Source: Rickettsiales bacterium
GTDB lineage: Bacteria; Pseudomonadota; Alphaproteobacteria; Rs-D84; CACZYB01
Length of the DNA: 30,759 nt
Assembly (NCBI GenBank): GCA_031288035.1
Contig: JAITSG010000019.1
Location: forward strand, 1-30,759
Direction: 5' to 3'
Part shown: piece by piece, positions 1,423 to 24,301 of the stretch
Layout: each line of letters begins with the position of its first letter
Numbering within the stretch: position 1 is the stretch's first letter
The notes under the pieces: model-generated
The model's database searches: none
What the model saw: only the letters and a program-made list of their open reading frames with translations
Told to the model about the DNA's origin: nothing
Program-made: the position numbers and the translations under genes

Positions 1423-3283
1423 GCGGATTCTCCGGCCGCGCCGCGATGCCGGCCTGGGAAAGTTCGTCCGGGCCTTCCTCGGCCTCGGCTTCCTCCCCGC
1501 TCTTCTTGTCAAGGTACTGTTCCAGCTCATGCATCTCGTCGGAGGTCAGGCGCTTGAAGTTGTGCGTGTCCGACGTGTATACCGGCCATTCGCCGCGCTC
1601 TATTTCCTCGAGGAACTCGTCCTTCTGGTACAGGCGGTTTTTGTATATCCACAGGTTGGCCATGACGCGCTTTATGTATATGCGCGTTTCCTTGAACCTT
1701 ACCGATTCGACGAAGAACAGGGGATCGTTTTCCCCGCCGTCCGTTTTCGCCAGCTGGCGCTTCAGGTTGCCCGGCCCGGCGTTATAGGCCAGCAGGAACT
1801 TGAACAGGTTGCCGTCTATCTCCGGCAGGTTCAGGAGATAGTCTATGTACATCTGGCCTATGTTGAGGTTTGTGGCGGCGTCGTACAGCTTGTCGCGTTT
1901 TTTCTTCCTGAGCGAGGAATCCTTCGCGATGAACGACGCGGTCGACGGCATTATTTGCAAAAGGCCGCGTGCGCCGACGTACGACTTCGCGCGCGGGTTG
2001 AAGCGCGATTCCTGCCTTATGACCGCGTTGATGAGGGCCGGGTCGATTTTCCATCCGTCGTCGGGATCTATGTCGAGTATCGGGTAGGCGGGCGCGGCGA
2101 ACCGGTTGGCCTCGGAATACTCCTTTATGTAATTGGCGACGTTTATGGACAGGAAAGGCATGTTCGCGATTTCCGCGACCGCCAGCACCGCGTTGACCAG
2201 CCCGTCTCCGGCGTCCGACACCGTAGCCAGCAGGTGTTTGAGCTCGTTCGCGGCCAGCTGCTTCTTGTCCAGCTGTAGGAGGGCCAGGGCGCGCACGCCG
2301 CCCGACCACGAGATTATCTCGCGCGCGTTTTCGAGCGTGAACCTCGGCTCGTCCCAGTTGATGTTGAATTTTTTGTTTAGCGTCTTTTGGGCGAGTATGC
2401 CGTAGAACGTCTTCGGGTACGACGCCGCTATGTCGAGGAGTTCTTCGCCGTCCGCCCGCGCGTCCTTGTCCTCTATGCGTTCGTTCGCGCGCCAGGCCCA
2501 GTACGCGCCCGCGGATATGTTGTCGGCCGGAAGGTATTTCTCGGTTGCGACCCGCCGGAAATGGTCGCGGGACTTTTCATAGTTCTTCTGCCGCCAGTGC
2601 ACGAGCCCGAGGACCCAGTTCGCGATATAGAAGTCGAGCTCTTCCGAGGGCTCGGCCGCCCACAGTATGGCGTCGTCGTCGTCGTCGTTCAGGAAGAACG
2701 CGAAGGCCAGGAACGCCTCCATGCGGAGATAGTCCGCGCGCGCGATGAACCTTTTCGCGCTCGGGTGCTCCATGGCGTTGCGCGCGCTTTTCGTGTCCGT
2801 CTTTCGTATGGCGCGGTTGAACCGGCGCAGCAGTGTCTTGACGTCCTGGGCCGCGGCCTTTCCCAGGTGGCCGTACCCGTACTGTATCATCTGGTATAGC
2901 TTCGCGTTGTCGTTCGGGAAATACGACGTCGGCGACGATTCCCTCTTCGGTTTCTTCAGGTCCTTTTTCGCGCCCTTCCTGAGCCCTAGGTTGTATATGT
3001 CGTTCGCGACGGGAAGGTCGCTGTATTTCTTAAGCCAGTCGCGCGCCTCTGAGAACCTGGTGGCGTAGTAGGGGCTCATGTAGCGCTGGTGGAGCACGTA
3101 TCCCATCAATATGTCGTTGGATATATTCTTTATTTCCTTGTCCGCGGCCGCGAATGCCCCCTTGTCCTGGATTTCGAACACCTTCGCGTACGTTTCGACG
3201 TCGTTGTCGTACAGGACCCTCGGCGTCTGCGCCGTTGCTGCCGTCGATGCAGCCAGAGCGATCATAAGTACGAGTTTTTTCAA
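1415..3283 (-). CDS. Soluble lytic transglycosylase (Slt-like) with signal peptide
   Basis: SLT domain AVIRQESRFNPRAKSYVGARGLLQIMPSTA ... LLAYNAGPG ... ETRIYIKRV. TTG start at 3283 gives the signal peptide MKKLVLMIALAASTAATA, with a GGAAGG RBS. Confidence 0.92.
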   Translation of the reverse strand: MKKLVLMIALAASTAATAQTPRVLYDNDVETYAKVFEIQDKGAFAAADKEIKNISNDILMGYVLHQRYMSPYYATRFSEARDWLKKYSDLPVANDIYNLGLRKGAKKDLKKPKRESSPTSYFPNDNAKLYQMIQYGYGHLGKAAAQDVKTLLRRFNRAIRKTDTKSARNAMEHPSAKRFIARADYLRMEAFLAFAFFLNDDDDDAILWAAEPSEELDFYIANWVLGLVHWRQKNYEKSRDHFRRVATEKYLPADNISAGAYWAWRANERIEDKDARADGEELLDIAASYPKTFYGILAQKTLNKKFNINWDEPRFTLENAREIISWSGGVRALALLQLDKKQLAANELKHLLATVSDAGDGLVNAVLAVAEIANMPFLSINVANYIKEYSEANRFAAPAYPILDIDPDDGWKIDPALINAVIRQESRFNPRAKSYVGARGLLQIMPSTASFIAKDSSLRKKKRDKLYDAATNLNIGQMYIDYLLNLPEIDGNLFKFLLAYNAGPGNLKRQLAKTDGGENDPLFFVESVRFKETRIYIKRVMANLWIYKNRLYQKDEFLEEIERGEWPVYTSDTHNFKRLTSDEMHELEQYLDKKSGEEAEAEEGPDELSQAGIAARPENPRE

Positions 3284-3308
3284 TTTTTCCTTCCGGTCAC
3301 GATGAGCC

Positions 3309-3337
3309 ATTCTAACCCGCCCGTGAAATTTTTGCAA
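3309..3337 (-). promoter_or_regulatory. sigma70-like promoter of the slt-rnhB-birA operon
   Basis: Minus strand TTGCAA-17 nt-TAGAAT; back-to-back with the plus-strand promoter at 3346. Confidence 0.65.
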
Positions 3338-3878: not shown

Positions 3879-4448
3879 ATGAAGAAAGAAAACAAGGACG
3901 GGGATTCCGTTTTGGATCTGGCTCTCGCCACGGACGGGGATTCGGCCGGGAGTTGCGGCCCGGACATAAAGGACGGCATGGCGGAGGCGTGCGAGGCCAT
4001 TGCCGGGCGGCTCAGGGCCTCCGGCATGACGCCCGGCCAGATCAAGCTGGTGTGCGATCTGGCCGCCGAGGTCCTGGAGCCGGCGATAGAAAGCGTGGCC
4101 GAGCATTACCGCGCCTTGCGCGAGCTGGAAAAGCTCGAGGAGTATTTCGGCGGCGAGGAGCGCTTCGACGAGATAAGCCGCCAGATAATCTCGTGGGGAA
4201 GGAAGAGCCTTCCGTCGGACGTCTTTGAGACTCTCGGCACCACGTGCCAGGGCGTGATAGCGCTGTACGGCATGATGCAGAGCTCCGAGCCTGTGGTCGC
4301 GAACGTCGCCGGCGCGAAGCCCGGCGCGATGACCGAGGCAAAGCTCCGCGACATGATGCGCGATCCGCGTTATTGGCGCGACAACGACGCCGAGTTCGTT
4401 AAATCCGTCGGCGATGGTTTCAGGAAATTGTACGACCGCCGGGCGTGA
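3879..4448 (+). CDS. Capsid assembly scaffolding protein (T7 gp9-like)
   Basis: Acidic helical protein ending in LRDMMRDPRYWRD...GFRKLY, as in podovirus scaffold C-termini; upstream of the capsid gene; GAAAGGA RBS. Confidence 0.7.
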   Translation: MKKENKDGDSVLDLALATDGDSAGSCGPDIKDGMAEACEAIAGRLRASGMTPGQIKLVCDLAAEVLEPAIESVAEHYRALRELEKLEEYFGGEERFDEISRQIISWGRKSLPSDVFETLGTTCQGVIALYGMMQSSEPVVANVAGAKPGAMTEAKLRDMMRDPRYWRDNDAEFVKSVGDGFRKLYDRRA

Positions 4449-5442: not shown

Positions 5443-6267
5443 ATGAGCATAGAAGATTCGTTTATCAAGCAGTTCGAGGCCGAAGTGCACCTTGCTTTCC
5501 AGCAGACGGGGACCAAGCTCAGGTCGACCGTCCGCACGAAGACGGGTGTGAAGGGCTCCAGCACCACGTTCCAGAAGATCGGGACCGGCGCCGCGGCCAC
5601 GAAGACCAGGAACGGCGCGGTCCCGGTGATGAGCCTGGAGCACGCTCCGGTCGAATGCGTCCTTACCGACTATTACGCCGGCGACTATATAGACGAGCTT
5701 GACGAGATCAAGGTGAATATAGACGAGCGCCGCGTGGTGGCCTCGGCCGGCGCGTACGCCCTCGGGCGAAAGTCGGACGAGCTTATCGTGGCCAAGCTCG
5801 CCTCCGCGACGCAGTCCGTTCCTGTCGGGACTTCCGGCATGACGAAGGCGAAGGTCCTCGCCGCGCTCGAGATCATAAACGGCGCGGACGTCCCCGACGA
5901 CGGCCAGCGCTTCGGCATAGTCGGCGTCCACCAGTGGAACGAGCTCTTGAACATGCCGGAATTTTCGAGCGCCGAATACGTGGGCGATTCGTATCCTCTG
6001 CTCAAGGGCACGGAATCGAGGAAGTGGATGGGCGTCAACTGGATAATGTACAACGGCCTTCCGTTCGCCTCCGGCAACCGCACGTGCTTCGTCTATCACA
6101 AGAACGCCGTGGGCCACGCGAGCGGCTCCGAGGTCAAGACCGACATATCGTGGGTCGGCGAGAAGGCCGCGCATTTCGTGTCCAGCTCCATGAGCCAGGG
6201 CGCGGCGCTTATCGACGTCTCCGGCGTGGTGAAGATAGTGTGCGACGACGACGCCGCGATAGCTTAA
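5443..6267 (+). CDS. Major capsid protein (podovirus-type)
   Basis: N-terminus FIKQFEAEVHLAFQQ.G.KLR.TV, then D..D.LD..K...D.R...A.ALGRK.D..I, typical of HK97-fold T7-like capsids; 274 aa; context of scaffold and tail genes. Confidence 0.88.
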   Translation: MSIEDSFIKQFEAEVHLAFQQTGTKLRSTVRTKTGVKGSSTTFQKIGTGAAATKTRNGAVPVMSLEHAPVECVLTDYYAGDYIDELDEIKVNIDERRVVASAGAYALGRKSDELIVAKLASATQSVPVGTSGMTKAKVLAALEIINGADVPDDGQRFGIVGVHQWNELLNMPEFSSAEYVGDSYPLLKGTESRKWMGVNWIMYNGLPFASGNRTCFVYHKNAVGHASGSEVKTDISWVGEKAAHFVSSSMSQGAALIDVSGVVKIVCDDDAAIA

Positions 6268-6349: not shown

Positions 6350-6586
6350 ATGGACTCGAAGAACCTGTCCGTTCTCTCGTATTCGAACGGATTCACGCTT
6401 TGGCACTACAAGACCGACGACGACAGGGCGGCCGTCATGGGGCCCGGGTATTTTTCCGTCATGGCGGGCGTTTTCAATCCCGGCGACGCGATGTTCGTCA
6501 CGTATTGCGGCGGCAGGCGCAGGTTTTCCGAGCTTGCCGTCATGGACGGCTCCGGCGGCGAGGTGACCCTCGTCGGTATGAGATAG
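6350..6586 (+). CDS. Small phage protein, possible capsid decoration protein
   Basis: 78 aa, NLSVLSYSNGFTLWHYKT...GYF...GD, which I recall following capsid genes in related alphaproteobacterial loci (unverified); GAAAGGA RBS. Confidence 0.55.
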   Translation: MDSKNLSVLSYSNGFTLWHYKTDDDRAAVMGPGYFSVMAGVFNPGDAMFVTYCGGRRRFSELAVMDGSGGEVTLVGMR

Positions 6587-6594
6587 GGGGACTT

Positions 6595-7122
6595 ATGAAC
6601 AGTATAGAATTGTGCTCGCAGGCGCTCGTGAAGATAGGGGCGGCCCCGATAGTGTCGTTCGACGACGGCTCTCTGGAGGCTTCGGTCGCGTCGTACGCGT
6701 ATCCGCTTGCGAAAAGAAAGCTGCTTTCCAGCTTCGCGTGGGGCTTCGCCACGAAATCGGCGAGGCTGAGCAGCCTTTCCGGCGGGGCGTTCGCCGTTCC
6801 GAACGATTTCCTGCGCGCGATATGCGTGCGCCCGAAATGTGCGTACGCGATAACGGGCCACAAGCTCGCGGCCGACGCTGATGCGATAGAGCTCGACTAC
6901 GTCGCCGACGTTGGCGAGGAGCTTTTCCCGCCGCTTTTCGAAAGCGCGCTGATGTATTCGCTTGCGGCGGAGTTTGCGATGTCGCTTTTGGATGACAGCG
7001 CCAGGTACAACCTTATGGAGCATACCGCGCTCTTGGAATTGCGCGAGGCTAGGTTCCAGGACAGCAGCCAGAAGAGCGCGAAGTCGATAAAGGGCTTCCC
7101 TCTCGTCGATGCGAGGAAATGA
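6595..7122 (+). CDS. Tail tubular protein A / head-tail adaptor (T7 gp11-like)
   Basis: LCSQAL.KIGA.PI.S.DDGS.EA......Y......LL....W.FA...P.DFLR...FPPLF..AL...LA.E; start moved to the ATG at 6595. Confidence 0.82.
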   Translation: MNSIELCSQALVKIGAAPIVSFDDGSLEASVASYAYPLAKRKLLSSFAWGFATKSARLSSLSGGAFAVPNDFLRAICVRPKCAYAITGHKLAADADAIELDYVADVGEELFPPLFESALMYSLAAEFAMSLLDDSARYNLMEHTALLELREARFQDSSQKSAKSIKGFPLVDARK

Positions 7123-7123
7123 C

Positions 7124-9007
7124 ATGTACAAGACGACGTTCACGAACACGGCGTTCTCCAGGGGCGAGATATCCCCGCACCTTCTGGCGCGCGGCGATTT
7201 CGAATCGTACAGGAGCTGCGCGATGAAGCTCAGGAACTTCCGCGTGCTTCCGGTCGGAAGCATAAGGCGCCGCCCGGGCACGGTGTTCGTAGCCGAGCTT
7301 CCGGGCGAGGCGAGGCTTATCCCGTTCGCGTATTCGCAAAGCGATTCGTTCCTGCTCGCCTTTACGTCCGGCCGGATACTGGTGTACTCTTCGTCCGGCC
7401 GGAATGTGGGGGAGCTTTCAAGCCCGTTCATGCCGGAGCATTTCGCGAGGATATGCTATGCGCAGAAAGGGGGCGAGCTGTACCTTTCGCACCCGGACGT
7501 GCCGCCAGCCGTCATATCGTACGATCCGATTGGGGGTTCGTGGAGCGTGTCCGGATGGAATTTTTCGACCATGCCGTTTTCAGAGTTCCCGGAATTTTCC
7601 GGAATCTCGGTGAAGCCTAGCGGAACCGGCGGAAGCATAAGCCTGTCGTCGGGCGCGGATTTTTTCACGGGCGATATGGTCGGCATAGCGTTTCGCATAA
7701 ACGGCGGCGAGGTTAGGGTGTCCTCCGTGTCCTCTCCGGCCGTGGCGTCTGCGGAGGTGCTCAGGGCGCTGGATTCGGCCGCCGCCTGCGATGATTTCAC
7801 CGAGCAGGCGTTTTCCGCCCGCCGCGGATGGCCCTCCAGCATAACGTTCCACCAGGACAGGCTCGTCATAGGCGGCAGCGCGGGCATACCGAACCGCCTG
7901 TGGTTTTCGAAGACCGGCGATTACCTGAACTTCGACCTTGGCGCCGGCCTCGACGACGAGGCGATAGAGTTCAACATGCTCTCCGACCGCGTGAACGACA
8001 TAGCGGCGGTTTTTGCCGGCCGTCACCTTCAGGTGTTCACGGGCGATTCCGAATGGATGGTGAGCGGCTCGCCCTTGACTCCGACTAGCGTTATGATACG
8101 CGAGCAGACCAAGATAGGCTCCATGACCTCGCGCCTGATAAAGCCGGTGCTGGTCGAGGGCTCTACTATATTCGTCGCCAGGAACGGCAGGGAAATCCGC
8201 GAGTTTTACTACGGCGAGATAGAGGGCGGTTACCGTTCGGACGACCTTGTCGCGCTCTCCAGCCATCTTATGCAAGGCCCGGTGGAGCAGGAGTACGATG
8301 CCTCCGGCCGCATGCTTTATGTAGTGCAGGGCGACGGGAGCATGGCGGTGCTTTCACTGAACAAGGGCATGGACATAAATGCATGGTCGCATTACGAGAC
8401 CGCGGGCGAGTTCAAGTCCATAGCGTGCGTCGGCGGATCGGTGTACGTGGCCGTCCGGCGCGGCGGCAGGTGGATGGTCGAATATTTCTCGGACGACGTT
8501 GGGAGCGACTCGTCGCGCGTCGAAAATTTCGGCGTCCCTTCGTCCGTAATGCCGGGCCTGTCGCACCTGGAGGGCGGGGACGTCGTGGCCGTGGCGGACG
8601 ACTATGTGTTCGCGGGCCGCGTGGAGGGCGGAGTCTTCGAAGTTTCCCGTCCCGCCCGGAACATAAGGGTCGGCCTGCCGTTCTCGCACTGCTACTGCCC
8701 GCTGCCGGCTTTCGTCGGCCGCTCGCGTCCTCCGCGGGCGTCGAGGCTTCTGGAGCTGGTGGTGCGCGTGATCGACACTCCGCTTGTCGAGATAGACGTG
8801 GGCCGCGGCCCGCGGGCGTTCACGGGCGCGCGCTTCGGCGGTCCTGGGATTTTGGACTCGCCGCTCGCGTATTTCACCGGCGACGTGCGCGCGCACGCCT
8901 CGGGCCTAGTCCGCGGGTTCGACGTGCCCATGTTCAAGATAGAGGGCTCGCTCCCTCTTCCTGTGCACATTTTAAGCATAACGCAGACTGTTGAATGCGT
9001 AAGGTAG
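7124..9007 (+). CDS. Tail tubular protein B / nozzle (T7 gp12-like)
   Basis: N-terminal FSRGEISP.L..R.D..Y.....LRNF.V.P.G...RRPG; internal WPS..TFHQDRL and WFSKTGDY.NF; about 627 aa. Confidence 0.85.
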   Translation: MYKTTFTNTAFSRGEISPHLLARGDFESYRSCAMKLRNFRVLPVGSIRRRPGTVFVAELPGEARLIPFAYSQSDSFLLAFTSGRILVYSSSGRNVGELSSPFMPEHFARICYAQKGGELYLSHPDVPPAVISYDPIGGSWSVSGWNFSTMPFSEFPEFSGISVKPSGTGGSISLSSGADFFTGDMVGIAFRINGGEVRVSSVSSPAVASAEVLRALDSAAACDDFTEQAFSARRGWPSSITFHQDRLVIGGSAGIPNRLWFSKTGDYLNFDLGAGLDDEAIEFNMLSDRVNDIAAVFAGRHLQVFTGDSEWMVSGSPLTPTSVMIREQTKIGSMTSRLIKPVLVEGSTIFVARNGREIREFYYGEIEGGYRSDDLVALSSHLMQGPVEQEYDASGRMLYVVQGDGSMAVLSLNKGMDINAWSHYETAGEFKSIACVGGSVYVAVRRGGRWMVEYFSDDVGSDSSRVENFGVPSSVMPGLSHLEGGDVVAVADDYVFAGRVEGGVFEVSRPARNIRVGLPFSHCYCPLPAFVGRSRPPRASRLLELVVRVIDTPLVEIDVGRGPRAFTGARFGGPGILDSPLAYFTGDVRAHASGLVRGFDVPMFKIEGSLPLPVHILSITQTVECVR

Positions 9008-9023: not shown

Positions 9024-9455
9024 ATGTCAACATCGAACGCCCTGCTGACGGGCTTTGATTTAGCGAAGAACACGGTCGACAAGAAGGCCGAGAAGGCCAA
9101 GTCCGACGCGGAGGCGAAGGCCAGGCTCGACAGCGAGGCCGCAAAGGACGCGATAGATTCGGAAAAGATAAGGGCCAAGGTCTCCCTGTTCGCGCGCGAC
9201 CGCACGAATCTTCTGAACGCGAAGGTCGCGGCCAACCGCGCCCGCATGGCGGCCAGCGGGCTTGACGGCACGTCGAACAGCATCCGGGCGTTCTTCGCCG
9301 CGCTTCAGAGTGCCGCGAACGAGGAGATAAGCGGCAACGCGTACTTCGCCGACCTGGATTTGGCGAAATACGACCTGAACGACCCGTCCGCCGTTTCGAG
9401 CATACTCGCCGCAGCGCAGGGGAAAAGCAAAAAGAAAAAAGTAGTGGGGTTCTGA
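9024..9455 (+). CDS. Putative internal virion (ejection) protein, gp14-like
   Basis: Ala-rich helical protein with a RARMAASGL motif, lying after tail tube B; AAAGGAG RBS. Confidence 0.5.
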   Translation: MSTSNALLTGFDLAKNTVDKKAEKAKSDAEAKARLDSEAAKDAIDSEKIRAKVSLFARDRTNLLNAKVAANRARMAASGLDGTSNSIRAFFAALQSAANEEISGNAYFADLDLAKYDLNDPSAVSSILAAAQGKSKKKKVVGF

Positions 9456-9456
9456 A

Positions 9457-9897
9457 ATGCCGTATGAAAAAGAAAACACCTCGGTATCGTATAAAGCCGA
9501 CGGCTCGTCCGTGGAGTTCGAGTTCCCGTTTAGGATCTTCCGGCCGCAGGACGTGAAGGTCGAGATAGACGACGATCCGGTCGAGGAAGGGTTTTCCGTC
9601 GCAGGGGACAAGGTGGTGTTCGCCGCGCCTCCGCCGGCCGGATCGGACATAAGCATAAGGCGGTTCCTCGATTTCACGCGCATAGGCGCGTTCACGGCCG
9701 GCGGCCCGTTCAGGGCCGAGGATGTAAATACCGAGTTCGAATACACCCGCGCGTGCATCCGCCAGATATTCGACACGGATCTGGCCGACGCGGTTGCGTT
9801 CGTTGAGGATTGCCTGAGCGCCATAGAGGAAATATACGGCGAGCTGACCGACATATGGGGCGGCCAGCTCGACTGCGGAGGCTTGGCCGATGCCTAG
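9457..9897 (+). CDS. Stand-alone T7 gp17-type tail-fibre N-terminal adaptor domain
   Basis: Y.ADG....F.FPF..F...DV.V...V.F..PP..G..I.I.R.......F..G....A..LN.EF pattern; only 146 aa. Confidence 0.78.
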   Translation: MPYEKENTSVSYKADGSSVEFEFPFRIFRPQDVKVEIDDDPVEEGFSVAGDKVVFAAPPPAGSDISIRRFLDFTRIGAFTAGGPFRAEDVNTEFEYTRACIRQIFDTDLADAVAFVEDCLSAIEEIYGELTDIWGGQLDCGGLADA

Positions 9898-10501
9898 CGC
9901 AGCGGCCGATTCGTCGTTCGTTTCGTTCCTCGGGGGCTGGAACTCGCTTATGGGCTTGTCCACGCCCGCCCACCATGTCCGCATCGCGAGATGGCTCGAG
10001 CGCGTGTTCAAAAGCAGGAAGAGGCGCGGGCTCCTGCTGGCCTTCCGGGCGAGCGGCAAGTCGACTATAGTCGGCCTGTTCATAGGATGGCTGCTGCGCG
10101 AGGATCCGAATCTGCGCATTCTGGTCGTCGCGGCGGATTCCGTTCTGGCCAAGAAGATGGTGCGTAGCGCGAGGAGGATAATCGAGATGCACCCCGGCCT
10201 GGCCGTCATCCGCCCGGTCAGGAGGGTCGAATGGGCGGGCGGATGCTTTACGGTGGAGCGCGGCATGCCTTTGCGCGATCCAAGCGTGCTTGCCATGGGC
10301 ATAGGCGCGAACATTACGGGGAGCAGGGCGGACGTGATAGTGTGCGACGACGTGGAGGTTCCGAAGAACACTTCTACCGCGGCCAGGCGCGCGGAGTTGC
10401 GCGAAAAGCTCCTGGAGCTCGACTTCGTCCTCACTCCGGACGGCATGGAGGTTTTCATAGGGACCCCGCATGTCAAGGACACTATTTACCGTGTGCGATA
10501 G
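9890..10501 (+). CDS. Terminase large subunit, N-terminal ATPase half
   Basis: Walker A AFRASGKST, Walker B VIVCDDVE, motif C FIGTPH, then stop; GGAGG RBS 8 nt upstream. Confidence 0.88.
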   Translation: MPSAAADSSFVSFLGGWNSLMGLSTPAHHVRIARWLERVFKSRKRRGLLLAFRASGKSTIVGLFIGWLLREDPNLRILVVAADSVLAKKMVRSARRIIEMHPGLAVIRPVRRVEWAGGCFTVERGMPLRDPSVLAMGIGANITGSRADVIVCDDVEVPKNTSTAARRAELREKLLELDFVLTPDGMEVFIGTPHVKDTIYRVR

Positions 10502-10870
10502 CCGGCTTGCGTTCGCGGTCGTTCGTCCTGTTCGCGGCTTTCGCCAAGTGCGTGCGGCGCTGAACTGCGCGCGGCAACATTTGCGAAGCATCATGCCCTT
10601 GTGCGGGGAGGGCATCCGGCCGGAAGCGCATCCGCAGGAGCTGTTTTTCGATTCTCGCGCGGACAACGGCCCTTGCCGCATGGCCGGCGTTCCTCGTTTG
10701 CGCGGACAACGGCCTTCGTTTTGCGAACCTATGTCCCTCATTTCGCTCGGACGCCGCCCGTCATTCGCGCAAGATGGCAGATTATATTCCCAGCCATAGG
10801 CGGCAAGAAAGGCCAAAACAGGCCAGAATCCGCCGATTTTTAGACAACAAAGAAATATTGTATAATTTTA

Positions 10871-10900
10871 TTGACAAACGAATTATTTTTCGTATAGAAT
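10871..10900 (+). promoter_or_regulatory. sigma70-like promoter, sRNA candidate 1
   Basis: TTGACA (10871) with TATAGA at 16 nt or TAGAAT at 18 nt spacing, in an AT-rich context. Confidence 0.65.
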
Positions 10901-10906
10901 GCAGCC

Positions 10907-11013
10907 ATTCCGCGAAAGCGGTACGAGTTTGCCGGAACGACCCCTCATTTCGGCAATAACCCCCGGGTCATTCCCTCCTTATTTCTCTCTCTCCTCTTGA
11001 TCCGGGGGATTTT
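10907..11013 (+). ncRNA. Small RNA candidate 1 (three hairpins, CU-rich loops)
   Basis: CCGC-GAAA-GCGG; 9-bp stem with loop CGACCCCTCA; 11-bp stem CCCCCGGGTCA/TGATCCGGGGG with a 27-nt pyrimidine loop, then ATTTT; no credible ORF. Confidence 0.55.
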
Positions 11014-11067
11014 CAAAGGGCCGCGGCCTTGCGCCGAAAGCCGCGCGGACATGCGTCAAGTTTTTCC

Positions 11068-11096
11068 TTGCATACCTGGCTGTTGCCTGCTAGAGT
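11068..11096 (+). promoter_or_regulatory. sigma70-like promoter with extended -10
   Basis: TTGCAT-17 nt-TAGAGT, with TG at 11088-11089. Confidence 0.5.
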
Positions 11097-11108
11097 TGGA
11101 TTCGTACG

Positions 11109-11136
11109 GACCGGATTGCCGGTCGGGTATTTTTTT
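11109..11136 (+). terminator. Intrinsic terminator
   Basis: GACCGG-ATTG-CCGGTC, then GGGTA and T7. Confidence 0.6.
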
Positions 11137-11337
11137 ATGGGAAAGTTGGCGTTGCGAATCGCATGCTGACGAATCGCGTTTTTTGATGCGTCCGGCCCGT
11201 AAAAAAGAATCAATTTTTAGGCAGTTAGGGTGTGGAATATAAATATTGAATTAATTTTTTAGATTTTGTATTCGTTTGATTTTACTGTGATTTCGGTTGG
11301 AATCATATACGAAACTTCGGTTTTGTGTCGAAACCGC

Positions 11338-11366
11338 TTGACTTTTCAAAACCTATCGCCTATGAA
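11338..11366 (+). promoter_or_regulatory. sigma70-like promoter, sRNA candidate 2
   Basis: TTGACT-17 nt-TATGAA; loss of the -7 T is common in alphaproteobacterial promoters. Confidence 0.55.
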
Positions 11367-11372
11367 TCACTA

Positions 11373-11480
11373 TGCGAGGCGATGGAATTGTTCTCTCAAT
11401 AACAAAACCTCCGGATTATTCCCTGTTGTATTCCTTTTCTCTCCTTTCCTCCTTCTCTCCTTACAACAGGGAGTTTTTTT
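11373..11480 (+). ncRNA. Small RNA candidate 2 (terminator stem with CU-rich loop)
   Basis: 13-bp stem ATTCCCTGTTGTA/TACAACAGGGAGT enclosing a 31-nt pure pyrimidine loop, followed by a T-tract. Confidence 0.55.
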
Positions 11481-11482
11481 AT

Positions 11483-11511
11483 TTGTACGGCCTTTGATTT
11501 TGTGGTATAAT
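11483..11511 (+). promoter_or_regulatory. sigma70 promoter, apparently leaderless, of the secreted protein gene
   Basis: TTGTAC-17 nt-TATAAT with extended TG; ATG follows 7 nt later; no SD sequence. Confidence 0.7.
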
Positions 11512-11518
11512 TGGGTCG

Positions 11519-13474
11519 ATGAGGAAAGGAATCTGTCATATACTGGCGTTTTTGCTGGCCCTGTCGGCCTCCGCTGGCGCCGCGACCCAGAAAAAGGCCG
11601 CCAGATCCGCGGGCAAGACCGGCGGGCACAAGGCCAAGAGGGTCAAGAAGAAGGAAACGACCACACAGCGGCTCGTTGGCGTTCCGAACGCTCCGTCAGA
11701 GCCCGGCGCCACTGCGACCAGCCCGCCAGTGTTTCAGAAGTATTTCGAATATCCGAACATAACGTTCTATAACGGCCAGAGCTATCCGCTTCAAAGCTTC
11801 ATGACTCCTTCGGTGGTTCAGGCATATCAGGCCTACGGCTCCGATTCGCGGGGGGAAAGGCTGTGCTTTTCGTGCCTGACGCTCCAGGGGACCAGCTCCG
11901 GCGGCCTTCCGCCCGAAACCGTGTCCGCGACCGCGGCGCAGAAGGCCTGTACTCCGCTAAAGGCTGGATATTCGTATGTTTTCGTCGTTGACCAGAACGC
12001 GACCGCCACGTGCGGCATGTCCGGGACCTTGACGATGGAGGACGCGAACAAATCCGTCCGCGGCCAGATGCCTATAACGTTTTCGATAAACACGGCCGCC
12101 CTGTCCGATCCGAACAACTTCGACGATCCGGACAAGACGTTCGACCAGCTGTTCGCCAATTTCGACAAGGTCAGGAACGGGATAAAGAGCGCGTATGAGA
12201 ATGTGAACGAGAAGTGCCGCGCGGCCAAGAAAGGGGTTAGCTCCCTGAAGGCCGCGGTTTCCGGCGCCACGACCCTTTCCGGCATAGGCATAGCGACTAG
12301 CGCGCTCGGCACCGGGGCGAGCGCCTGGAGCACGATTAACACTAAGAAGATAAAGGGCGGCCAGGAGGATCTGGCCAACGCCGACAAGGCGATACGCGAC
12401 GCGCTTGCGGTGTTGGACGCGGAGGCTGTTAAGATAGCCGAGGGTGACGGGAGGACAGCTTGGAAAGAATCTGAGAAATACGCCGCTATCCTTGAAGGCG
12501 GCCGGTGGGAGCCGGACGATTCGTCCGCGACCGAGGGGAAGATAAAGCTGTTTAAGAGCAAGAGTGTCGATGAAAAAGCCCAGGCCGACCATACCATTAA
12601 CTTCACCCAGGCGGTGAAGGAGTTGGAGAAGAATAGGAATGCCGAGCCATTGGCAGAGAATGATATTATTCGGCAATCCTCTCTAGTTACAACAGCCGCC
12701 AACAACGGAACAAAGCTTTGTGATGTCGATATTACTGGCAAGACCATCGCAGATAAGGATATCCAAGAGGTTAGATCTGATCTGAACAGTTCCGTTGACG
12801 ATTTTAGAAACAACGGAACCGGAGCTGCGGAAATGGCGGCTGGTGAAAAATACGACCTGCTTATAAAGGAGTGCGATACCGCAAAAGATAACGCGAGTAA
12901 AGCGGTTGGCAAGACTGATTCGCAATCTATAAGGAGTAGAGAAAATTTTGAAAGAAATTATGGGGAGGGATTTGACTGCAAGCCTGATCCGGATCAATCC
13001 CCTGGTGCAAATGTTCCTGTCAAAAAAGCAGCTTTGCAGAAAGCTCGTTATAATTTGACCGCAGCTGGCGTTGCTCTTACTCCTGAACAAAAAAGCAAAA
13101 TAAGATGCGTGGAAGACGCTATTGCCAAGCTCAACGAAGTGCAAAACGGCACCGGCTTCAACGAGAAGCTTGCCAAGCTTAGGACTGCCGAGGCCGCTGC
13201 GAAGTCGTTCGAGGATACGAAGGAGGACGCCCAGAGCGCGCGCAACCTGTCGTTCGGGCTCGACATGGGCGCGTCGGCCGCCGGTCTTGCCACGACCGGC
13301 TTGTCCGCCTTCGGTCTGGGCAAGGGCGCGGAAGCGGCAGGGGACGTGGACAAGGCGGCCGAGCAGGTCAAGGCCTGCGCCGACGCGTCGGCCGGATTGA
13401 CCAAGGCCCTGTCCGACTACGACGAATACGTCCGCTCGCTCGAGGAGGAGGAAGAGGAGGATTTCATATGGTAA
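11519..13474 (+). CDS. Large secreted helical protein with two Gly/Ala-rich hydrophobic helices
   Basis: Signal peptide (ILAFLLALSASAGA); hydrophobic segments LSGIGIATSALGTGASAW and LSFGLDMGASAAGLATTGLSAFGLG; acidic tail. Confidence 0.8.
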   Translation: MRKGICHILAFLLALSASAGAATQKKAARSAGKTGGHKAKRVKKKETTTQRLVGVPNAPSEPGATATSPPVFQKYFEYPNITFYNGQSYPLQSFMTPSVVQAYQAYGSDSRGERLCFSCLTLQGTSSGGLPPETVSATAAQKACTPLKAGYSYVFVVDQNATATCGMSGTLTMEDANKSVRGQMPITFSINTAALSDPNNFDDPDKTFDQLFANFDKVRNGIKSAYENVNEKCRAAKKGVSSLKAAVSGATTLSGIGIATSALGTGASAWSTINTKKIKGGQEDLANADKAIRDALAVLDAEAVKIAEGDGRTAWKESEKYAAILEGGRWEPDDSSATEGKIKLFKSKSVDEKAQADHTINFTQAVKELEKNRNAEPLAENDIIRQSSLVTTAANNGTKLCDVDITGKTIADKDIQEVRSDLNSSVDDFRNNGTGAAEMAAGEKYDLLIKECDTAKDNASKAVGKTDSQSIRSRENFERNYGEGFDCKPDPDQSPGANVPVKKAALQKARYNLTAAGVALTPEQKSKIRCVEDAIAKLNEVQNGTGFNEKLAKLRTAEAAAKSFEDTKEDAQSARNLSFGLDMGASAAGLATTGLSAFGLGKGAEAAGDVDKAAEQVKACADASAGLTKALSDYDEYVRSLEEEEEEDFIW

Positions 13475-14022
13475 GGCGCAAGGCAATCGTCGTTCCCGGC
13501 CGTCTCGCCGTTCCCGCGCGTGCGGGCGTGGCTATGGCCTGGTTTCTCGCGTTCTCGGCCCCCGCGTTTTCCGCCGACGCGCGCATCACGGGGCCGAAGA
13601 AAAAGCTCGACGCCCAGATTGAGGCCCTGAACGCTGTTTCCCAGAAATGCCGTCCGAACAGCAAGGACATCTCGGATATTTCCGGCTCGCTGACCGCGGG
13701 CAATATCACGAACGCCGTCGCGATAGCCGGCGGCGGTACGGCCATGGTGACTAGCGGTATTTCCGTCTTCAAGGAATTCCAGTACAAGGGATTGCAGAAG
13801 AAAGATGAGCTGACGGACGAGGAAAAGAAGAAGATGGAGAAGACTACCGACGCGCAGGGCAAGCTCCGCCTCGCCTCCGCCATAGGTTCTGGCGTCGCCA
13901 CGGCCGGCAACACGGTTTCCACCCTCACGCTGAACAGCGCGGCTGGCAAGCTGGATAAGGCCCTGGAGTATTACGGCGGATGCTTCGATGCGCTCGAGGC
14001 CGTGGACACGACCGGCTGGTGA
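13468..14022 (+). CDS. Secreted protein, compact paralog of the upstream gene
   Basis: Signal-peptide-like segment AMAWFLAFSAPAFSA; shared motifs KCR, two Gly-rich helices, DAQ..R and DKA.E...C.DA. Confidence 0.75.
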   Translation: MVRRKAIVVPGRLAVPARAGVAMAWFLAFSAPAFSADARITGPKKKLDAQIEALNAVSQKCRPNSKDISDISGSLTAGNITNAVAIAGGGTAMVTSGISVFKEFQYKGLQKKDELTDEEKKKMEKTTDAQGKLRLASAIGSGVATAGNTVSTLTLNSAAGKLDKALEYYGGCFDALEAVDTTGW

Positions 14023-14178
14023 TGGTCCCGTCGTTCCGGCGCAGGCCGGTTCAGTCACCCCGGCGCAGGCCGGGGCCCCCTGTTCGGTATAGTTGCATAT
14101 TCTTTGCCGCGGGATGGCTGCCTTTCGGCTTCGCTTTGTTTCGCCGGGGCAAGCCGCCGGCATGATAACGGCCTTTAC

Positions 14179-14205
14179 TCCCCGCCTCCCGCGGGGATTT
14201 TTTTT
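14179..14205 (+). terminator. Intrinsic terminator immediately upstream of the portal gene
   Basis: TCCCCGC-CTCCC-GCGGGGA then T8; the portal RBS begins 12 nt later. Confidence 0.72.
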
Positions 14206-14230
14206 ATTTCAACGACAGAAAGGAGAAGCA

Positions 14231-15625
14231 ATGGACATGTTTGCCGTATATGAGAAATACAAGCGCGCATTCGAGGAGCGGAGCCGGTTCGAGCCGGTAT
14301 GGGACGACTGCAGGAGGTATTCCCAGCCGGGCGCGGCCGATGAGTGCGTGTTCGATTCTACCGCCGCGAATGCGGTGGACAACCTGGCCTCGAGCCTGCT
14401 GGCCCAGCTTACTCCGCCGTGGTCGCGCTGGTTCGGGCTCAGTTCCGGCTCTCCGGAGGCCGCGGGCGCGGTAGCGGAGGCCGAGCGCGTGCTCCAGAGC
14501 CACATGGAGCGCAGCAATTTTTATGTCGAGGCGCACCAGTGCTATCTCGACCTGGTGACGTTCGGCACGGCGGTCATGCTGTTCGAGGAGGCTCCGGTCG
14601 GCTGGCCGAGCGCGTTCAAGTTCTCGGCCGTTCCGTTCGAGGAGGTCGCGCTCGGCTCGCAAGACGAGGTATTCCGCCGCACTGTTTTGTCCCGCGATAT
14701 TATGCGCGCGAAGTTTCCGTCGCTCCCGCTGCCCGAGGGCAAGGATTCGTTCACGGTGGTCGAATCCTCGGCTCCGCGCATGACGGCGAGCGGCCCGCAG
14801 GGGTTCGGCTATATGGTTTTCGCCGACGTGGACGGATCGCCGCTCTTGATATCCGAGGGCGTGTTCGGCATGTCGCCGTTCATAGTCTTCCGCTGGATGA
14901 AGATGCCCTCCGAGGTCTACGGCCGCAGCCCGATGATGAAGGCGCTTCCCGACGTCAAGACCGCGAACAAGGTTGTCGAGCTTGTCCTCAAGAACGCGTC
15001 CATGTCCGTCTCCGGCGTGTGGATGGCCGACGACGACGGCGTGATGAACCTGGACAACATAACGCTTTCCCCCGGAACGATAATACCAAAGGCCGTGGGA
15101 TCCAGCGGCCTCACGCCGCTCAGGACCGGCGCGGATTTCAACGTAAGCCAGCTCGTGCTTTCCGAGCTTCGGTCGAACATAGAGCGCTGCCTCCTGGCCG
15201 ACCGGCTGTCGGATTTTAGGGGGGCGCGCATGACCGCGACCGAGGTTGTGGAGCGCAGCGAGTCCGTCTCTCGGGTGCTCGGCGCGACGTACGGGCGGCT
15301 GCAGAGCGAGTTCCTGACCATGGTCATCCTGCGCGCGGTGGGCATACTGAAGCGCCGGGGCGAGATAGGCCCTCTGTTCGTCAACGGTCGCGAGGTGGAT
15401 TTGAAATACCAATCGCCTCTGGCCGGCGCCCAGGCCGTGCGCGACGCCGAGAACGTCCTCGGCTGGATAAGGGCCATGGGCGACCTCGGCGGCGGCGCGC
15501 TGGAGCGCGTGGACAGGGACGCCGTTGCGAAATACCTGTCGCGCGTATTCGGGATAAGCGGCGACTTCACGGCCGATGCCGCTTCTCCCGGCGCGGGGAG
15601 CCCGTCAACGGGCCCGGAGGACTAG
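14231..15625 (+). CDS. Head-tail connector / portal protein (T7 gp8-like)
   Basis: FDSTA..AV.NLAS.L...LTPP...WF.L; DL.TFGTA; RW...PSEVYGRSP; TATEV.ER; GRLQ.EF; start at the ATG after GAAAGGAG. Confidence 0.92.
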   Translation: MDMFAVYEKYKRAFEERSRFEPVWDDCRRYSQPGAADECVFDSTAANAVDNLASSLLAQLTPPWSRWFGLSSGSPEAAGAVAEAERVLQSHMERSNFYVEAHQCYLDLVTFGTAVMLFEEAPVGWPSAFKFSAVPFEEVALGSQDEVFRRTVLSRDIMRAKFPSLPLPEGKDSFTVVESSAPRMTASGPQGFGYMVFADVDGSPLLISEGVFGMSPFIVFRWMKMPSEVYGRSPMMKALPDVKTANKVVELVLKNASMSVSGVWMADDDGVMNLDNITLSPGTIIPKAVGSSGLTPLRTGADFNVSQLVLSELRSNIERCLLADRLSDFRGARMTATEVVERSESVSRVLGATYGRLQSEFLTMVILRAVGILKRRGEIGPLFVNGREVDLKYQSPLAGAQAVRDAENVLGWIRAMGDLGGGALERVDRDAVAKYLSRVFGISGDFTADAASPGAGSPSTGPED

Positions 15626-15627
15626 CC

Positions 15628-16458
15628 ATGGAAGACCGGGATGATCCGCCGTTTTTGGAGGGGTTCGACCTGCTGAAGATTCCGGTGGTCGAGGACGGCC
15701 GGCCCGTGTGGCCGGAAAAGTTCCCGCTTGATAAGATAGAGCGGGTGCGCAGGTCTGCCGGCCCGCGGAAGTTCATGAGCCAGATGATGCTCGCCGTTCC
15801 GGACGGGGACGGCGGCCGGCTGTCCCCGGAAAGCCTGAAATTCTATTCGGCCGAGATAGAGGCGAGCGAGCGCAACCATGTCGTTTCGCATTCCGTCGCG
15901 GGCAGGCCGCTGGCCGGATATTCGTGCTGGTGGGATCCGTCGTTCGGATCGGCCAAGGGCGACGCGAGCGTCGTTGCCTATGTCCTTGTGGGCTGCGGAG
16001 GCGAGCGGTACCTGCACGACGTCGAGTATATCGCGGTGGACGATTCCGCGCGCTCGGCCGAGATACAGTGCGCCCGCATAGCCGGGTTCCTCGCCCGCCA
16101 TTCGATACGGACTATCCGGGTCGAGGACAACGGGCTCGGCAAGTTTCTGCCGGAGATACTGCGCGCCCGCACCGGCGCGGCGGTGATAGCGGAGCGTTCC
16201 AAGGCGCCGAAGGAGAAGAGGATACTCGATTCGTTGGAGGTCGCGGCGTCGGCCGGGCTGCTCTATGTTCACGAAAGGGTGAGGTCTGCGCGCTGGATGG
16301 ACGAATTTATGGGCTGGACGCCGGGCGGAGGTTCGCCGGACGACGGACTTGACGCCGCGGCCGGCGCCATGTCCGCCCCGTTCGCCAAGTTCCCGTTCGC
16401 GCTGGTCCGGCGCCGTTTCCCGCCGCGAGGCAAGACATACAAGGTAAGATGGAGGTGA
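15628..16458 (+). CDS. Terminase large subunit, C-terminal RNase H-like nuclease half
   Basis: Begins with the inter-domain region (PFLEGF..L.IP...G..VWPE.F...GPRKF.SQM), then WWDPSFG..KGDAS, VEDNG and PDDGLDA; GGAGG RBS 7 nt upstream. Confidence 0.85.
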   Translation: MEDRDDPPFLEGFDLLKIPVVEDGRPVWPEKFPLDKIERVRRSAGPRKFMSQMMLAVPDGDGGRLSPESLKFYSAEIEASERNHVVSHSVAGRPLAGYSCWWDPSFGSAKGDASVVAYVLVGCGGERYLHDVEYIAVDDSARSAEIQCARIAGFLARHSIRTIRVEDNGLGKFLPEILRARTGAAVIAERSKAPKEKRILDSLEVAASAGLLYVHERVRSARWMDEFMGWTPGGGSPDDGLDAAAGAMSAPFAKFPFALVRRRFPPRGKTYKVRWR

Positions 16459-22316: not shown

Positions 22317-23015
22317 ATGGGTATGGTTCGCGTGCACGTAGAGGATATATCGCCTAGGCTCGAGCTCAAGGGCGCGGATTTCCATTACCTGCATGATGTG
22401 ATGAGGCTGGGGCCGGGCGGCGCCGTCAATGTGTTCAACGAAGCCGACGGCGAGTTCGGGGCCAGGGTCTCCGAAGTTTCGCGCCGCTCTGTCGTGCTGG
22501 ATGTGGGGGGCATGGTGCGCGGCCCGGAAAGCGAGAGCCTGCAAGACATAGGGCTCGCCTTCTCGCCGATTCGCCACGCGCGGCAGGATTTCATGGTAGA
22601 GCACGCAACCGAGCTCGGCGCCATGTCCCTCTCGCCGGTCGTGATGGAAAGGTCGCAGGTGCGCGCGTTCAACGCCGGGCGCGCCCGCGAGATAGCCAGG
22701 CAGGCCTCCGAGCAGTCCCGCCGCCTGTCCGTTCCGGAGGTGCTATCTCCCGTCCGGTTCGCCGATTTCATGGCGGGGTTCGATTTCAAGTCCCGCAGGC
22801 TCGTGTTCCTGGACGAGCGTCCGTCTGCGAAAAGGGCTCCCATGCCGCCCGCGCCGGCTACGTTCCTCGTGGGGCCGGAGGGCGGTTTTTCGGAGGCGGA
22901 GTTCGCCGCGCTCGATGCCTCTCCCGCCGTCGGGATTTCGCTCGGGCCTCTTGTCCTGCGTTCGGAAACCGCGGCCCTTGCGGCGCTGGCCGCGTACGGT
23001 GCGGGGGCGCGATGA
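22317..23015 (+). CDS. rsmE: 16S rRNA m3U1498 methyltransferase
   Basis: HYL..VMRL, ATELG, A..ASEQS.R...PE, LVGPEGGFS.AE, LGP.VLRSETA. Confidence 0.95.
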   Translation: MGMVRVHVEDISPRLELKGADFHYLHDVMRLGPGGAVNVFNEADGEFGARVSEVSRRSVVLDVGGMVRGPESESLQDIGLAFSPIRHARQDFMVEHATELGAMSLSPVVMERSQVRAFNAGRAREIARQASEQSRRLSVPEVLSPVRFADFMAGFDFKSRRLVFLDERPSAKRAPMPPAPATFLVGPEGGFSEAEFAALDASPAVGISLGPLVLRSETAALAALAAYGAGAR

Positions 23016-24301
23016 ACACGGCCGCCCTGGATTTCATGCGCGCTATGAGGGCCGAGCTCGCCGCGACGAATTCCTCGCTTGAAAAGCAGGGTATTTTGAG
23101 GCGCTATTTCGATTCCGATCCGGAAACCTTCCGCCGCCTTATGTCGTACCTGTATGATTATGACAGGATGTTTTACGTCACGTCCCAGACCGTGTCCGAC
23201 TGCGCCGCCGCGCCTGCGTCGCAGTCGGCGCTGGACTTTTCCGGCATAGGGACGGTGTTCGACATGCTCGACGCCCTTCACTCCCGGGCGTACACGGGCA
23301 ACGCCGCGCGCGCGTTCGTCGCGGGGTACATAGCGGCGGTCGGCGACGGGTACGCGGATCTGGTGAAATGCTTTTTGGACAAGGACCTGCATGTCCGCGT
23401 TTCCATCGCCACGATAAACAAGGCGGCGCCCGGCACGGTCAAGGAGTTTTCCTGCGCCCTTGCCAACAAGTTCCACGAGCGCGAGAAAAAGATAGACGTG
23501 GCGGATTATTACATAAGCCGCAAGATCGACGGCTGCCGCTGCCTGACCTTCACCTCGACCGGGGAGTCGTACTCGCGCGAGGGGCACGAGTTCGAGACCT
23601 TGGGTCTGATACGCGGGGCCGTGCGCGCTCTCGGCCGCCCCGGCTTCGTGATAGACGGCGAGGTATGCATAGTCGACGAGAACGATCGCGAGGACTTCCA
23701 GGCTATAATGAAGCTTATCAAGAGGAAGGACTTCACCATTCCCAACCCGAAGTACAAGATATTCGACATCCTGACCGAGGGCGAGTTCTACGGCAAGTAC
23801 GCCGACGTCCCGTACGAGGAGAGGATGGCGCGGTTGGATTTCGGGGGCGATCCGCTGTTCGACCCTCTTCCGTTCTATCCGTCGGACTGTTTCGACGAGC
23901 TTGTCAAGCAGGTGTCCGCGGGCGTGTTCGAGGGGATAATATACCGCCACAGGAGGATATACGAGGGCAAGCGCTCGGACGCCCTGTTGAAGTACAAGGA
24001 GTTCGAGGACGCGGAATTCAGGGTCGTGGCTACGACCGGGGGGATTATGCCCGTCCTCGAGGGCGGCGTCATGGTCGACACTCCGGTCCTGGCCAACGTC
24101 ATCATAGATCTCGGCGGCGGCGGCACGTGCGAGGTCGGCTCGGGATTTTCTGTGGAGGAGAGGCTCGAGTTCCTCGCGCATCCTGAGCGCATAGTCGGCC
24201 ACATGATAACGGTCAAGTATTTCGAGCGCACGACCGACCAGTTCGGGAAGCCCTCTCTCCGCTTCCCCATATTCAAGGGCATAAGGGACGAGATGCTGTA
24301 G
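23012..24301 (+). CDS. ATP-dependent DNA ligase, phage-type
   Basis: Motif I KIDGCR, III VIDGE, IIIa KIFD, IV EGII, V LLKYK; OB-fold GSGFS...VKYFE...LRFP.FK. Confidence 0.92.
   Translation: MNTAALDFMRAMRAELAATNSSLEKQGILRRYFDSDPETFRRLMSYLYDYDRMFYVTSQTVSDCAAAPASQSALDFSGIGTVFDMLDALHSRAYTGNAARAFVAGYIAAVGDGYADLVKCFLDKDLHVRVSIATINKAAPGTVKEFSCALANKFHEREKKIDVADYYISRKIDGCRCLTFTSTGESYSREGHEFETLGLIRGAVRALGRPGFVIDGEVCIVDENDREDFQAIMKLIKRKDFTIPNPKYKIFDILTEGEFYGKYADVPYEERMARLDFGGDPLFDPLPFYPSDCFDELVKQVSAGVFEGIIYRHRRIYEGKRSDALLKYKEFEDAEFRVVATTGGIMPVLEGGVMVDTPVLANVIIDLGGGGTCEVGSGFSVEERLEFLAHPERIVGHMITVKYFERTTDQFGKPSLRFPIFKGIRDEML

Follow-up and report, generated by a model that had tools for sequence, protein, structure and literature searches.

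Can a large terminase (TerL) be made as two chains from two separate genes? To our knowledge, all tailed phages and herpesviruses studied make TerL as one chain, whose internal contacts couple ATP hydrolysis, DNA translocation and the cut, and the gene transfer agents (GTAs) known to us likewise have a one-chain TerL. The question is raised by contig JAITSG010000019.1 of a Rickettsiales bacterium of the order Rs-D84 (assembly GCA_031288035.1), an uncultured organism; the window analyzed here is this entire 30.8-kb contig, from a genome of 0.81 Mb, 92% complete and ~60% GC. Instead of the single polypeptide that characterizes T7-type TerL, it encodes the ATPase and the nuclease on two open reading frames (ORFs) 5126 nucleotides (nt) apart, as does every genome of the order holding both halves. 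An earlier reading of the DNA letters alone (hereafter the sequence-only reading) had proposed a maintained two-polypeptide motor with separate ATPase and nuclease genes and the portal between them. Comparison across the order indicates that this is a two-gene TerL kept by selection, not a broken gene. The genes concerned are the following.

9890-10501, + strand: TerL-N, 203 amino acids (aa), the RecA-type ATPase core of a T7-type large terminase
14231-15625, + strand: T7-type portal, or head-to-tail connector (PF12236, E 1e-94)
15628-16458, + strand: TerL-C, 276 aa, the ATPase segment that follows motif III and an RNase H-like nuclease

Both halves are labelled "hypothetical protein" by annotation pipelines. 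TerL-N matches positions 268-458 of 760 in the TerL family phrog_38 (E 1e-39) and positions 1-189 of 500 in the NCBIfam model NF033889 (termin_lrg_T7; 232 bits for a cut-off of 150), and aligns with residues 16-210 of T7 gp19 (PDB 4bij). TerL-C covers positions 482-701 of phrog_38 (E 6e-39) and 232-461 of NF033889, where its 96.6 bits are below the cut-off of 150 when taken alone, and matches PF22530, the T7 terminase RNase H-like domain. Simply added, the NF033889 bits of the two halves come to ~329; the full-length relative P0027 scores 415. TerL-N carries Walker A (G56-K57-S58), Walker B with the catalytic residue (D153-D154-x-E156) and motif III (G191-T192-P193-H194), and TerL-C the acidic residues D103 (WWDPS), E166 (VEDNG) and D238/D239/D242 (PDDGLD), which had been assigned to the nuclease from the letters alone; all are invariant in 30 orthologues.

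The observations of the sequence-only reading were all borne out. TerL-N does end just after motif C (GTPH...IY): its C-terminus reads ...GTPHVKDTIYRVR-stop, 9 residues past GTPH. The halves do not overlap and together amount to about one TerL, since 203 + 276 = 479 aa and the concatenated halves are collinear with ten single-chain relatives of 465-483 aa, with no segment missing; in this alignment the break is located in a stretch that varies by ~10 residues in length among the single-chain relatives. Each half has its own GGAGG ribosome-binding site, spaced 8 nt from the ATG at 9890 and 7 nt from that at 15628, and the nuclease half starts 2 nt after the portal stop (TAG, 15623-15625). As had been stated, no terminase remnant follows the TerL-N stop, where 10502-11518 is non-coding, and the 0.81-Mb genome has exactly one match per half and no second or intact terL.

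We then searched for TerL-N, TerL-C and the portal in 60 genomes of the same order, all of 0.5-1.1 Mb (counts below include the window genome). TerL-N was found in 53/61 genomes, with open frames of 197-251 aa, and TerL-C also in 53/61, with open frames of 268-379 aa, each always as a separate short ORF; the portal was found in 55/61. Both halves occur in five of the six families of the order (f1 to f6, f1 being that of the window genome), and the sixth, f6, has TerL-N and the portal in one genome. In all 30 loci read, TerL-N ends with GTPHxxxxIY and 1-6 further residues, and TerL-C starts with Met and a few residues before (P/A)FLxG(F/Y). None of the 30 + 30 orthologues contains an internal stop. 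Median pairwise ratios of nonsynonymous to synonymous substitution rates (dN/dS), computed within two genera and within f1, were 0.087-0.161 for TerL-N, 0.120-0.250 for TerL-C and 0.050-0.250 for the portal, values that are approximate because dS is near saturation for most pairs; in the closest pair, TerL-C has a dN of 0.014 and a dS of 0.173. A breakpoint unique to this genome and under relaxed selection, one of the outcomes that would have undone the original proposal, is thus contradicted, the break being common to five of the six families and the dN/dS of the halves (0.09-0.25) like that of the portal. As both genes are kept by selection across the whole order, the split appears to be an old two-piece design rather than a broken gene.

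Where the protein is cut required a correction. That there are two genes holds, but the cut does not separate ATPase from nuclease: it falls within the ATPase module, ~10 residues past motif III. The counterpart of TerL-C residues 24-59 is T7 gp19 257-294, well ahead of the nuclease, and TerL-C also aligns to T7 gp19 406-480. When TerL-C was modelled alone with AlphaFold, the per-residue confidence (pLDDT) was 47-76 for residues 1-65 and rose above 90 from about residue 68 in the RNase H-like fold (70-255). The best fold match of this model is PhiV-1 TerL (8DGC, chain 8dgc_E), followed by the terminase nuclease domains of G20c, RB49, P74-26 and Sf6 (including 5m1o, 3c6h and 5tge). Residues 1-60 of TerL-C include seven order-wide invariants (P19, W28, G45, F49, Q52, M53 and L55), a pattern that fits continued constraint on a contact with TerL-N.

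A heterodimer model had been suggested as a check. The TerL-N/TerL-C complex was predicted with an interface score (ipSAE) of 0.90-0.91 in three runs, against 0.00 for the best control, a mark reached by 58/80 solved complexes and 2/110 mismatched pairs; this score shows likeness to one TerL rather than binding, because the model may remember solved single-chain TerLs. The whole predicted interface consists of TerL-C 8-60 against TerL-N 24-57 and 171-203, so that the residues preceding the nuclease fold (1-65) dock on the ATPase core in the prediction. The structures of T4 gp17 that Sun et al. described in 2007 and 2008 reportedly have an ATPase lid subdomain made of N-terminal helices and the segment after motif III. 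The predicted interface matches this picture and, if so, the lid would here be built from both chains. In the models, the two chains look like an obligate, interlocked pair, and such tight interlocking argues against a freely and separately deployed nuclease. With a breakpoint common to five of six families, purifying selection, intact motifs and a predicted TerL-like heterodimer, the claim of a maintained two-polypeptide TerL is upheld.

We further investigated the origin of the split. A homologue at ~40% identity is present in 60/401 genomes sampled across the class, and outside the order it is one frame of at least 480 aa. Among the best 80 loci of the genome collection, 74 encode a single-chain TerL; of the other six, five come from the window's order and one is frameshift-like. 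Single-chain carriers include Thalassospira, Magnetospirillum, Micavibrio, Asaia, Ca. Scatocola and CAG:495, among others, and their clusters show the canonical T7 arrangement, which opens with the portal and closes with TerL. These alphaproteobacterial TerLs are the window TerL's closest relatives (52-59% identity to TerL-N, ~40% to TerL-C), and their clusters share the window's structural genes, namely portal, scaffold, capsid, tube A, tube B and fibre. Their TerL, in contrast, is a single ORF of 465-500 aa; only in the window's order is it split and the portal relocated. The 24 split TerLs, concatenated, were placed in a maximum-likelihood tree with the 74 single-chain alphaproteobacterial TerLs; a branch with SH-aLRT support of 99 separates the two sets, so that one fission event is enough. 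Split TerLs group by host family in this tree, and their relatives largely by host genus. TerL in this order is thus split, with a single origin, selection on both halves and intact motifs.

We also looked for the same split in real phages and rejected it: TerL matches in GenBank phages are all single genes, and IMG/VR contigs of 26-39 kb that resemble whole phages carry a full-length TerL. An all-against-all search of representatives, made to find independent splits in other lineages, returned mostly 450-600-aa proteins, together with short ones indistinguishable from contig-end fragments. As a separate observation, 16 of the best 80 IMG/VR viral-contig matches are contigs of 5-14 kb whose TerL-N ORF is short and has an f4-type tail (L143, L146, L147, L151, L157-L159, L161-L163, L165-L167 and L172-L174); these look like pieces of the bacterial chromosomal cluster filed as viruses. 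In the free-living relative Magnetospirillum sp. LM-5 (L093:10053-10775), the gene after the single-chain terL is GTA_holin_3TM (PF11351, E 4e-16), followed by host genes. Because a GTA holin gene adjoins terL there, T7-like clusters outside the order may also be host-kept and GTA-like.

The two halves belong to a T7-like cluster whose remaining features in the window are listed here.

3.9-16.5 kb, + strand: T7-like morphogenesis cluster, ~14 kb, structural genes only (Pfam/PHROG matches)
3879-4448, + strand: scaffold (PF05396)
5443-6267, + strand: capsid (PF19821)
6400-7122, + strand: tail tube A (phrog_394)
7109-9007, + strand: tail tube B (phrog_376)
9024-9455, + strand: 143-aa protein
9457-9897, + strand: tail fibre, 146 aa, N-terminal (tail-attachment) domain only (PF03906, E 6e-9; phrog_1640)
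10502-11518, + strand: non-coding spacer of 1 kb directly after TerL-N, low GC (~49%)
10871-10900, + strand: near-consensus promoter in this spacer (consensus scan)
10960-11014 and 11421-11484, + strand: hairpins in this spacer, each with a long CU-rich loop and then a U run
11519-13474, + strand: 651-aa protein between the TerL halves, not terminase-related, no Pfam/PHROG match
13468-14022, + strand: 184-aa protein between the TerL halves, weak match to phrog_9927 (virion structural, E 3e-4), tblastn match in the sister genome locus L044
14179-14207, + strand: terminator-like hairpin just upstream of the portal start, 7 bp (6 GC) and T8 (consensus scan only)

The fibre stop overlaps the TerL-N start by 8 nt, which makes TerL-N the last gene of the run from scaffold to fibre. 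The 651-aa protein has a weak relative at the equivalent position in L044 (tblastn). The portal ORF is open from 14093, with the ATG at 14231 as its likely start. Host genes flank the cluster, among them those for biotin ligase, RNase HII, ABC transporters, RsmE and SAICAR synthetase, and annotation of the window and its flanks revealed no integrase, polymerase or replication module. Pfam and PHROG matches gave no recognizable small terminase in the window. Just upstream of the cluster, a 640-aa protein (1415-3337, - strand) has an SLT transglycosylase domain and matches the PHROG family phrog_342 (E 1e-13), whose members are internal virion proteins bearing an endolysin domain; it may be a gp16-like core protein of the particle. 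An ATP-dependent DNA ligase of 429 aa (PF01068 and PF14743) is encoded at 23012-24301, 5 kb downstream of the cluster, and could be phage-derived, because T7-like phages encode such a ligase.

The content between the halves varies by family. In the basal families f2, f3 and f5 only 174-550 nt separate the adjacent halves, with the portal 1-12 kb downstream. In f4 an insert of 3.3 kb follows TerL-N, and TerL-C and then the portal come after it; the insert is an opposite-strand block of genes for DnaB, a double helix-turn-helix protein and a 224-aa protein, and the complete f4 genome G051 has no other strong match to DnaB. In f1 the order is TerL-N, 3-8.7 kb, portal, TerL-C (5.1 kb including the portal between the halves in the window genome), and in 9/10 genomes there is an 8-nt overlap or a gap of 2-15 nt between the portal stop and the start of TerL-C. 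The only FtsZ of the f1 genome G003 lies between TerL-N and the portal, an insertion seen in one genus. Because the intervening content differs in this way, the portal between the halves is a derived, family-specific rearrangement, and the layout with adjacent halves looks ancestral. The sequence-only reading was therefore right about the portal for the window and f1, but this position is not a general feature, the halves being adjacent in f2, f3 and f5 and separated by the dnaB block in f4.

Other differences between these loci were apparent. In the f6 genome G023 (L022:13240-15316), TerL-N is followed directly by the portal, in the order capsid, tube A, TerL-N, portal, tube B, scaffold. The portal has ~407 aa in f4 (L016, L033-L043), which is without the C-terminal 60-90 residues, and 464-505 aa in f1. 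Basal families have a tRNA gene in the interval from TerL-C to the distant portal (L018:13179-13251, L019:7875-7947, L020:9692-9764 and L021:8214-8286), perhaps left over from the site where the T7-like ancestor first integrated. FtsZ/tubulin (PF00091) has no match in G051 (complete, a single contig of 0.96 Mb, 97%) and one match each in G000 and G003; cell division in the G051 lineage may need no FtsZ, or the protein may have diverged beyond detection.

The spacer after TerL-N holds a module of its own. In f2, f3 and f5 the spacers are also non-coding and, besides a promoter-like site, each contains one hairpin or two of the design seen in the window: a GC-rich stem, a CU-rich loop of 20-40 nt with CCUCC/UCUCC motifs, and a U run. 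An alignment of eight units shows an 8-bp stem with compensatory changes at 6 pairs, and neither the window spacer nor the basal loci gave a match to an Rfam family for these hairpin units. The window has two promoter-led units without ORFs (10871-11014 and 11330-11484), and units of the same design lie at L017:12965-13149, L018:7209-7327 and 7509-7675, L019:10263-10390 (- strand), L020:12779-12904 (- strand) and L021:17251-17374 (- strand). Such units might act as an anti-Shine-Dalgarno small RNA or as an attenuator. Either insertion of the module caused the fission or the module settled in the gap afterwards. The terminator-like hairpin just upstream of the portal start suggests that the portal and TerL-C form a transcription unit separate from that of TerL-N.

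We consider it probable that terL underwent a single ancient fission, and that both chains have been kept and reassemble non-covalently as a TerL-like protomer in a host-kept cluster. The ancestor of this order of reduced-genome gut Alphaproteobacteria would have carried a chromosomal cluster for a T7-like head, short tail and packaging, with a single-chain terL. This gene would have been cut once, ~10 residues past motif III, in the length-variable stretch, each piece gaining its own stop, start and ribosome-binding site and evolving under purifying selection since. TerL-N would be expressed at the end of the structural run, and TerL-C with the portal, to which it would be translationally coupled. 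The chains would then rejoin non-covalently, TerL-N providing the RecA core with Walker A, Walker B and motif III, and TerL-C the remaining ~65 residues of the ATPase module, packed on the N-terminal helices and last strand of TerL-N, along with the RNase H-like nuclease. Such heterodimers, themselves a prediction, would oligomerize on the portal like a single-chain TerL, translocate DNA and cut it; we infer both this motor activity and its use in a host-kept, GTA-like particle. As the halves need not be contiguous, the gap could have become a site of rearrangement, and separate transcription units could set the ratio of the two chains.

Besides the limits given with the dN/dS values and the complex score, several points weigh against this account. 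G023, an f6 genome that is 99% complete, keeps TerL-N, portal, capsid and tube genes without a TerL-C detectable even by profile, which shows that one half can be lost without the other. Six genomes of the order have neither the halves nor the portal, so the system is dispensable. Only one DNA run, from a termite gut metagenome, holds the sequence, and no RNA run holding it turned up in a search that took any kind of run and was not aimed at RNA. Finally, the N and C domains of T4 gp17, expressed separately, reportedly did not restore packaging in vitro.

The lack of a detectable TerL-C in G023 would also fit two halves that act independently, TerL-N as a stand-alone packaging ATPase like phi29 gp16, which translocates DNA without an active nuclease, and TerL-C as a free nuclease under its own regulation, in headful cutting or another host role. 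This comes near the separately regulated cleavage that the sequence-only reading had thought possible. Promoter- and terminator-like sites between the halves, which would place them in separate transcription units, point the same way. We nevertheless find independent action unlikely, because the cut inside the ATPase module leaves TerL-N without the segment that follows motif III in every single-chain relative, and that segment, carried by TerL-C, equals the catalytic residues in invariance and accounts for the entire predicted interface. Moreover, the halves co-occur, contig-end cases aside: one half alone was found in four genomes, and in G007, G012 and G013 the match sits at a contig end.

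A decaying prophage remnant, in which terL was broken by rearrangement and its pieces are drifting to loss, would account for a rearranged cluster with a truncated fibre and no recognizable small terminase that some genomes of the order have lost. It is highly improbable given that the breakpoint is identical in all families with both halves and in the one f6 genome with TerL-N, that no orthologue is interrupted, that dN/dS equals that of the portal and that the catalytic residues are invariant. In addition, the locus is not a complete phage genome, is conserved across the order and has been rearranged together with host genes.

Could an intron spliced in cis or trans, a split intein or translational bypassing rejoin the halves into a one-chain TerL? 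There are precedents: terL of the Jug jumbo phages of the gut is split by group I introns, and splicing restores one mRNA and protein (PMC12880540), and an intron-interrupted terL is also mentioned for Staphylococcus phage Twort (PMC13729910). Such genes likewise appear as two or three ORFs in the DNA. Unlike them, the halves have their own ribosome-binding sites, starts and stops, with unrelated or host genes between the pieces. Rfam searches of the window and of five basal loci at the gathering threshold detected no intron; these searches, and one of 10500-11520 at E<=5, yielded just tRNAs and chance-level matches. Same-strand genes separate the halves here and an opposite-strand dnaB in f4, and the 174-550-nt spacers hold many stops; since the halves sum to the full TerL length, there is no room for intein parts. 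We regard rejoining as barely credible.

An assembly artefact, in which a chimeric contig put the portal inside terL, can be dismissed in spite of the low coverage (~6x) of this metagenome-assembled contig from a single run, as independent Logan contigs of that run are 100% identical to the window (one, covering 9429-11776, spans the fibre, TerL-N, its stop and 1.2 kb beyond; a second, covering 13592-15657, spans the portal and reaches 30 nt into TerL-C, one short of the 31-nt bridging rule; such independent contigs leave 15658-15666 and 15851-15862 uncovered), the order TerL-N ... portal, TerL-C recurs in ten other f1 genomes, ~50 genomes have the same two-ORF form, and identical TerL-C proteins of relatives lie on up to 63 independent contigs.

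Set beside known systems, the two-chain TerL belongs to the family of T7 gp19 (PDB 4BIJ) and PhiV-1 TerL (PDB 8DGC; NF033889), with the same motifs in the same order, and differs in that those are single chains of ~586 aa, whereas here chains of 203 and 276 aa, encoded 5.1 kb apart, divide the ATPase module. The GTAs RcGTA, BaGTA and FpGTA are, like this cluster, chromosome-fixed particle genes without replication or integration genes, apparently vertically inherited under selection and interleaved with host genes; they differ in having a one-chain TerL. The locus shares with GTAs phage-derived structural and packaging genes in the chromosome without integrase or polymerase, vertical inheritance across the order with a dN/dS of 0.05-0.25, a TerL tree ordered by host family and the embedding of an essential gene, dnaB or ftsZ.

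As for published accounts, phi29 gp16 is described as a packaging ATPase with a vestigial C-terminal domain in the same chain and no nuclease partner (PMC7672431). It is thus also an ATPase not fused to an active nuclease, whereas here an intact nuclease forms a second chain with part of the ATPase module. FpGTA of Faecalibacterium (Firmicutes) was described as the first podovirus-like GTA-like element (PMC12946183). The one paper that turned up on reduced genomes of Rs-D84 / Ca. Enterousia has no mention of phage, capsid or terminase genes (PMC12306168), and that on the Bartonella GTA concerns lambda-like genes, not relevant to a T7-like cluster. Our literature searches found no description of a non-spliced two-gene TerL and, for T7-like GTAs and for phage genes of Rs-D84/Enterousia, none of such a cluster.

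The window thus encodes a two-chain form of a known enzyme family, embedded in a candidate GTA-like element. A maintained split through the ATPase module would offer a ready-made complementation system for the contacts that couple ATPase core, lid segment and nuclease. In practical terms, fragments of this chromosomal cluster appear to be filed as viral contigs in IMG/VR. A more specific picture, which we offer tentatively and hold to be possible rather than probable, is that of a two-polypeptide viral-type motor with its ATPase module completed in trans by the nuclease chain, serving a host-owned T7-like GTA particle in partner-dependent gut bacteria (<1 Mb), with the CU-loop module and the portal coupling setting the ratio of translocating to cutting subunits. 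The split itself is strong evidence that the host uses the surrounding T7-like cluster, rather than that the cluster is decaying. These bacteria have shed most biosynthetic pathways yet keep ~14 kb of particle genes interleaved with dnaB or ftsZ, which bears on the existence of podovirus-type gene transfer agents in Alphaproteobacteria.

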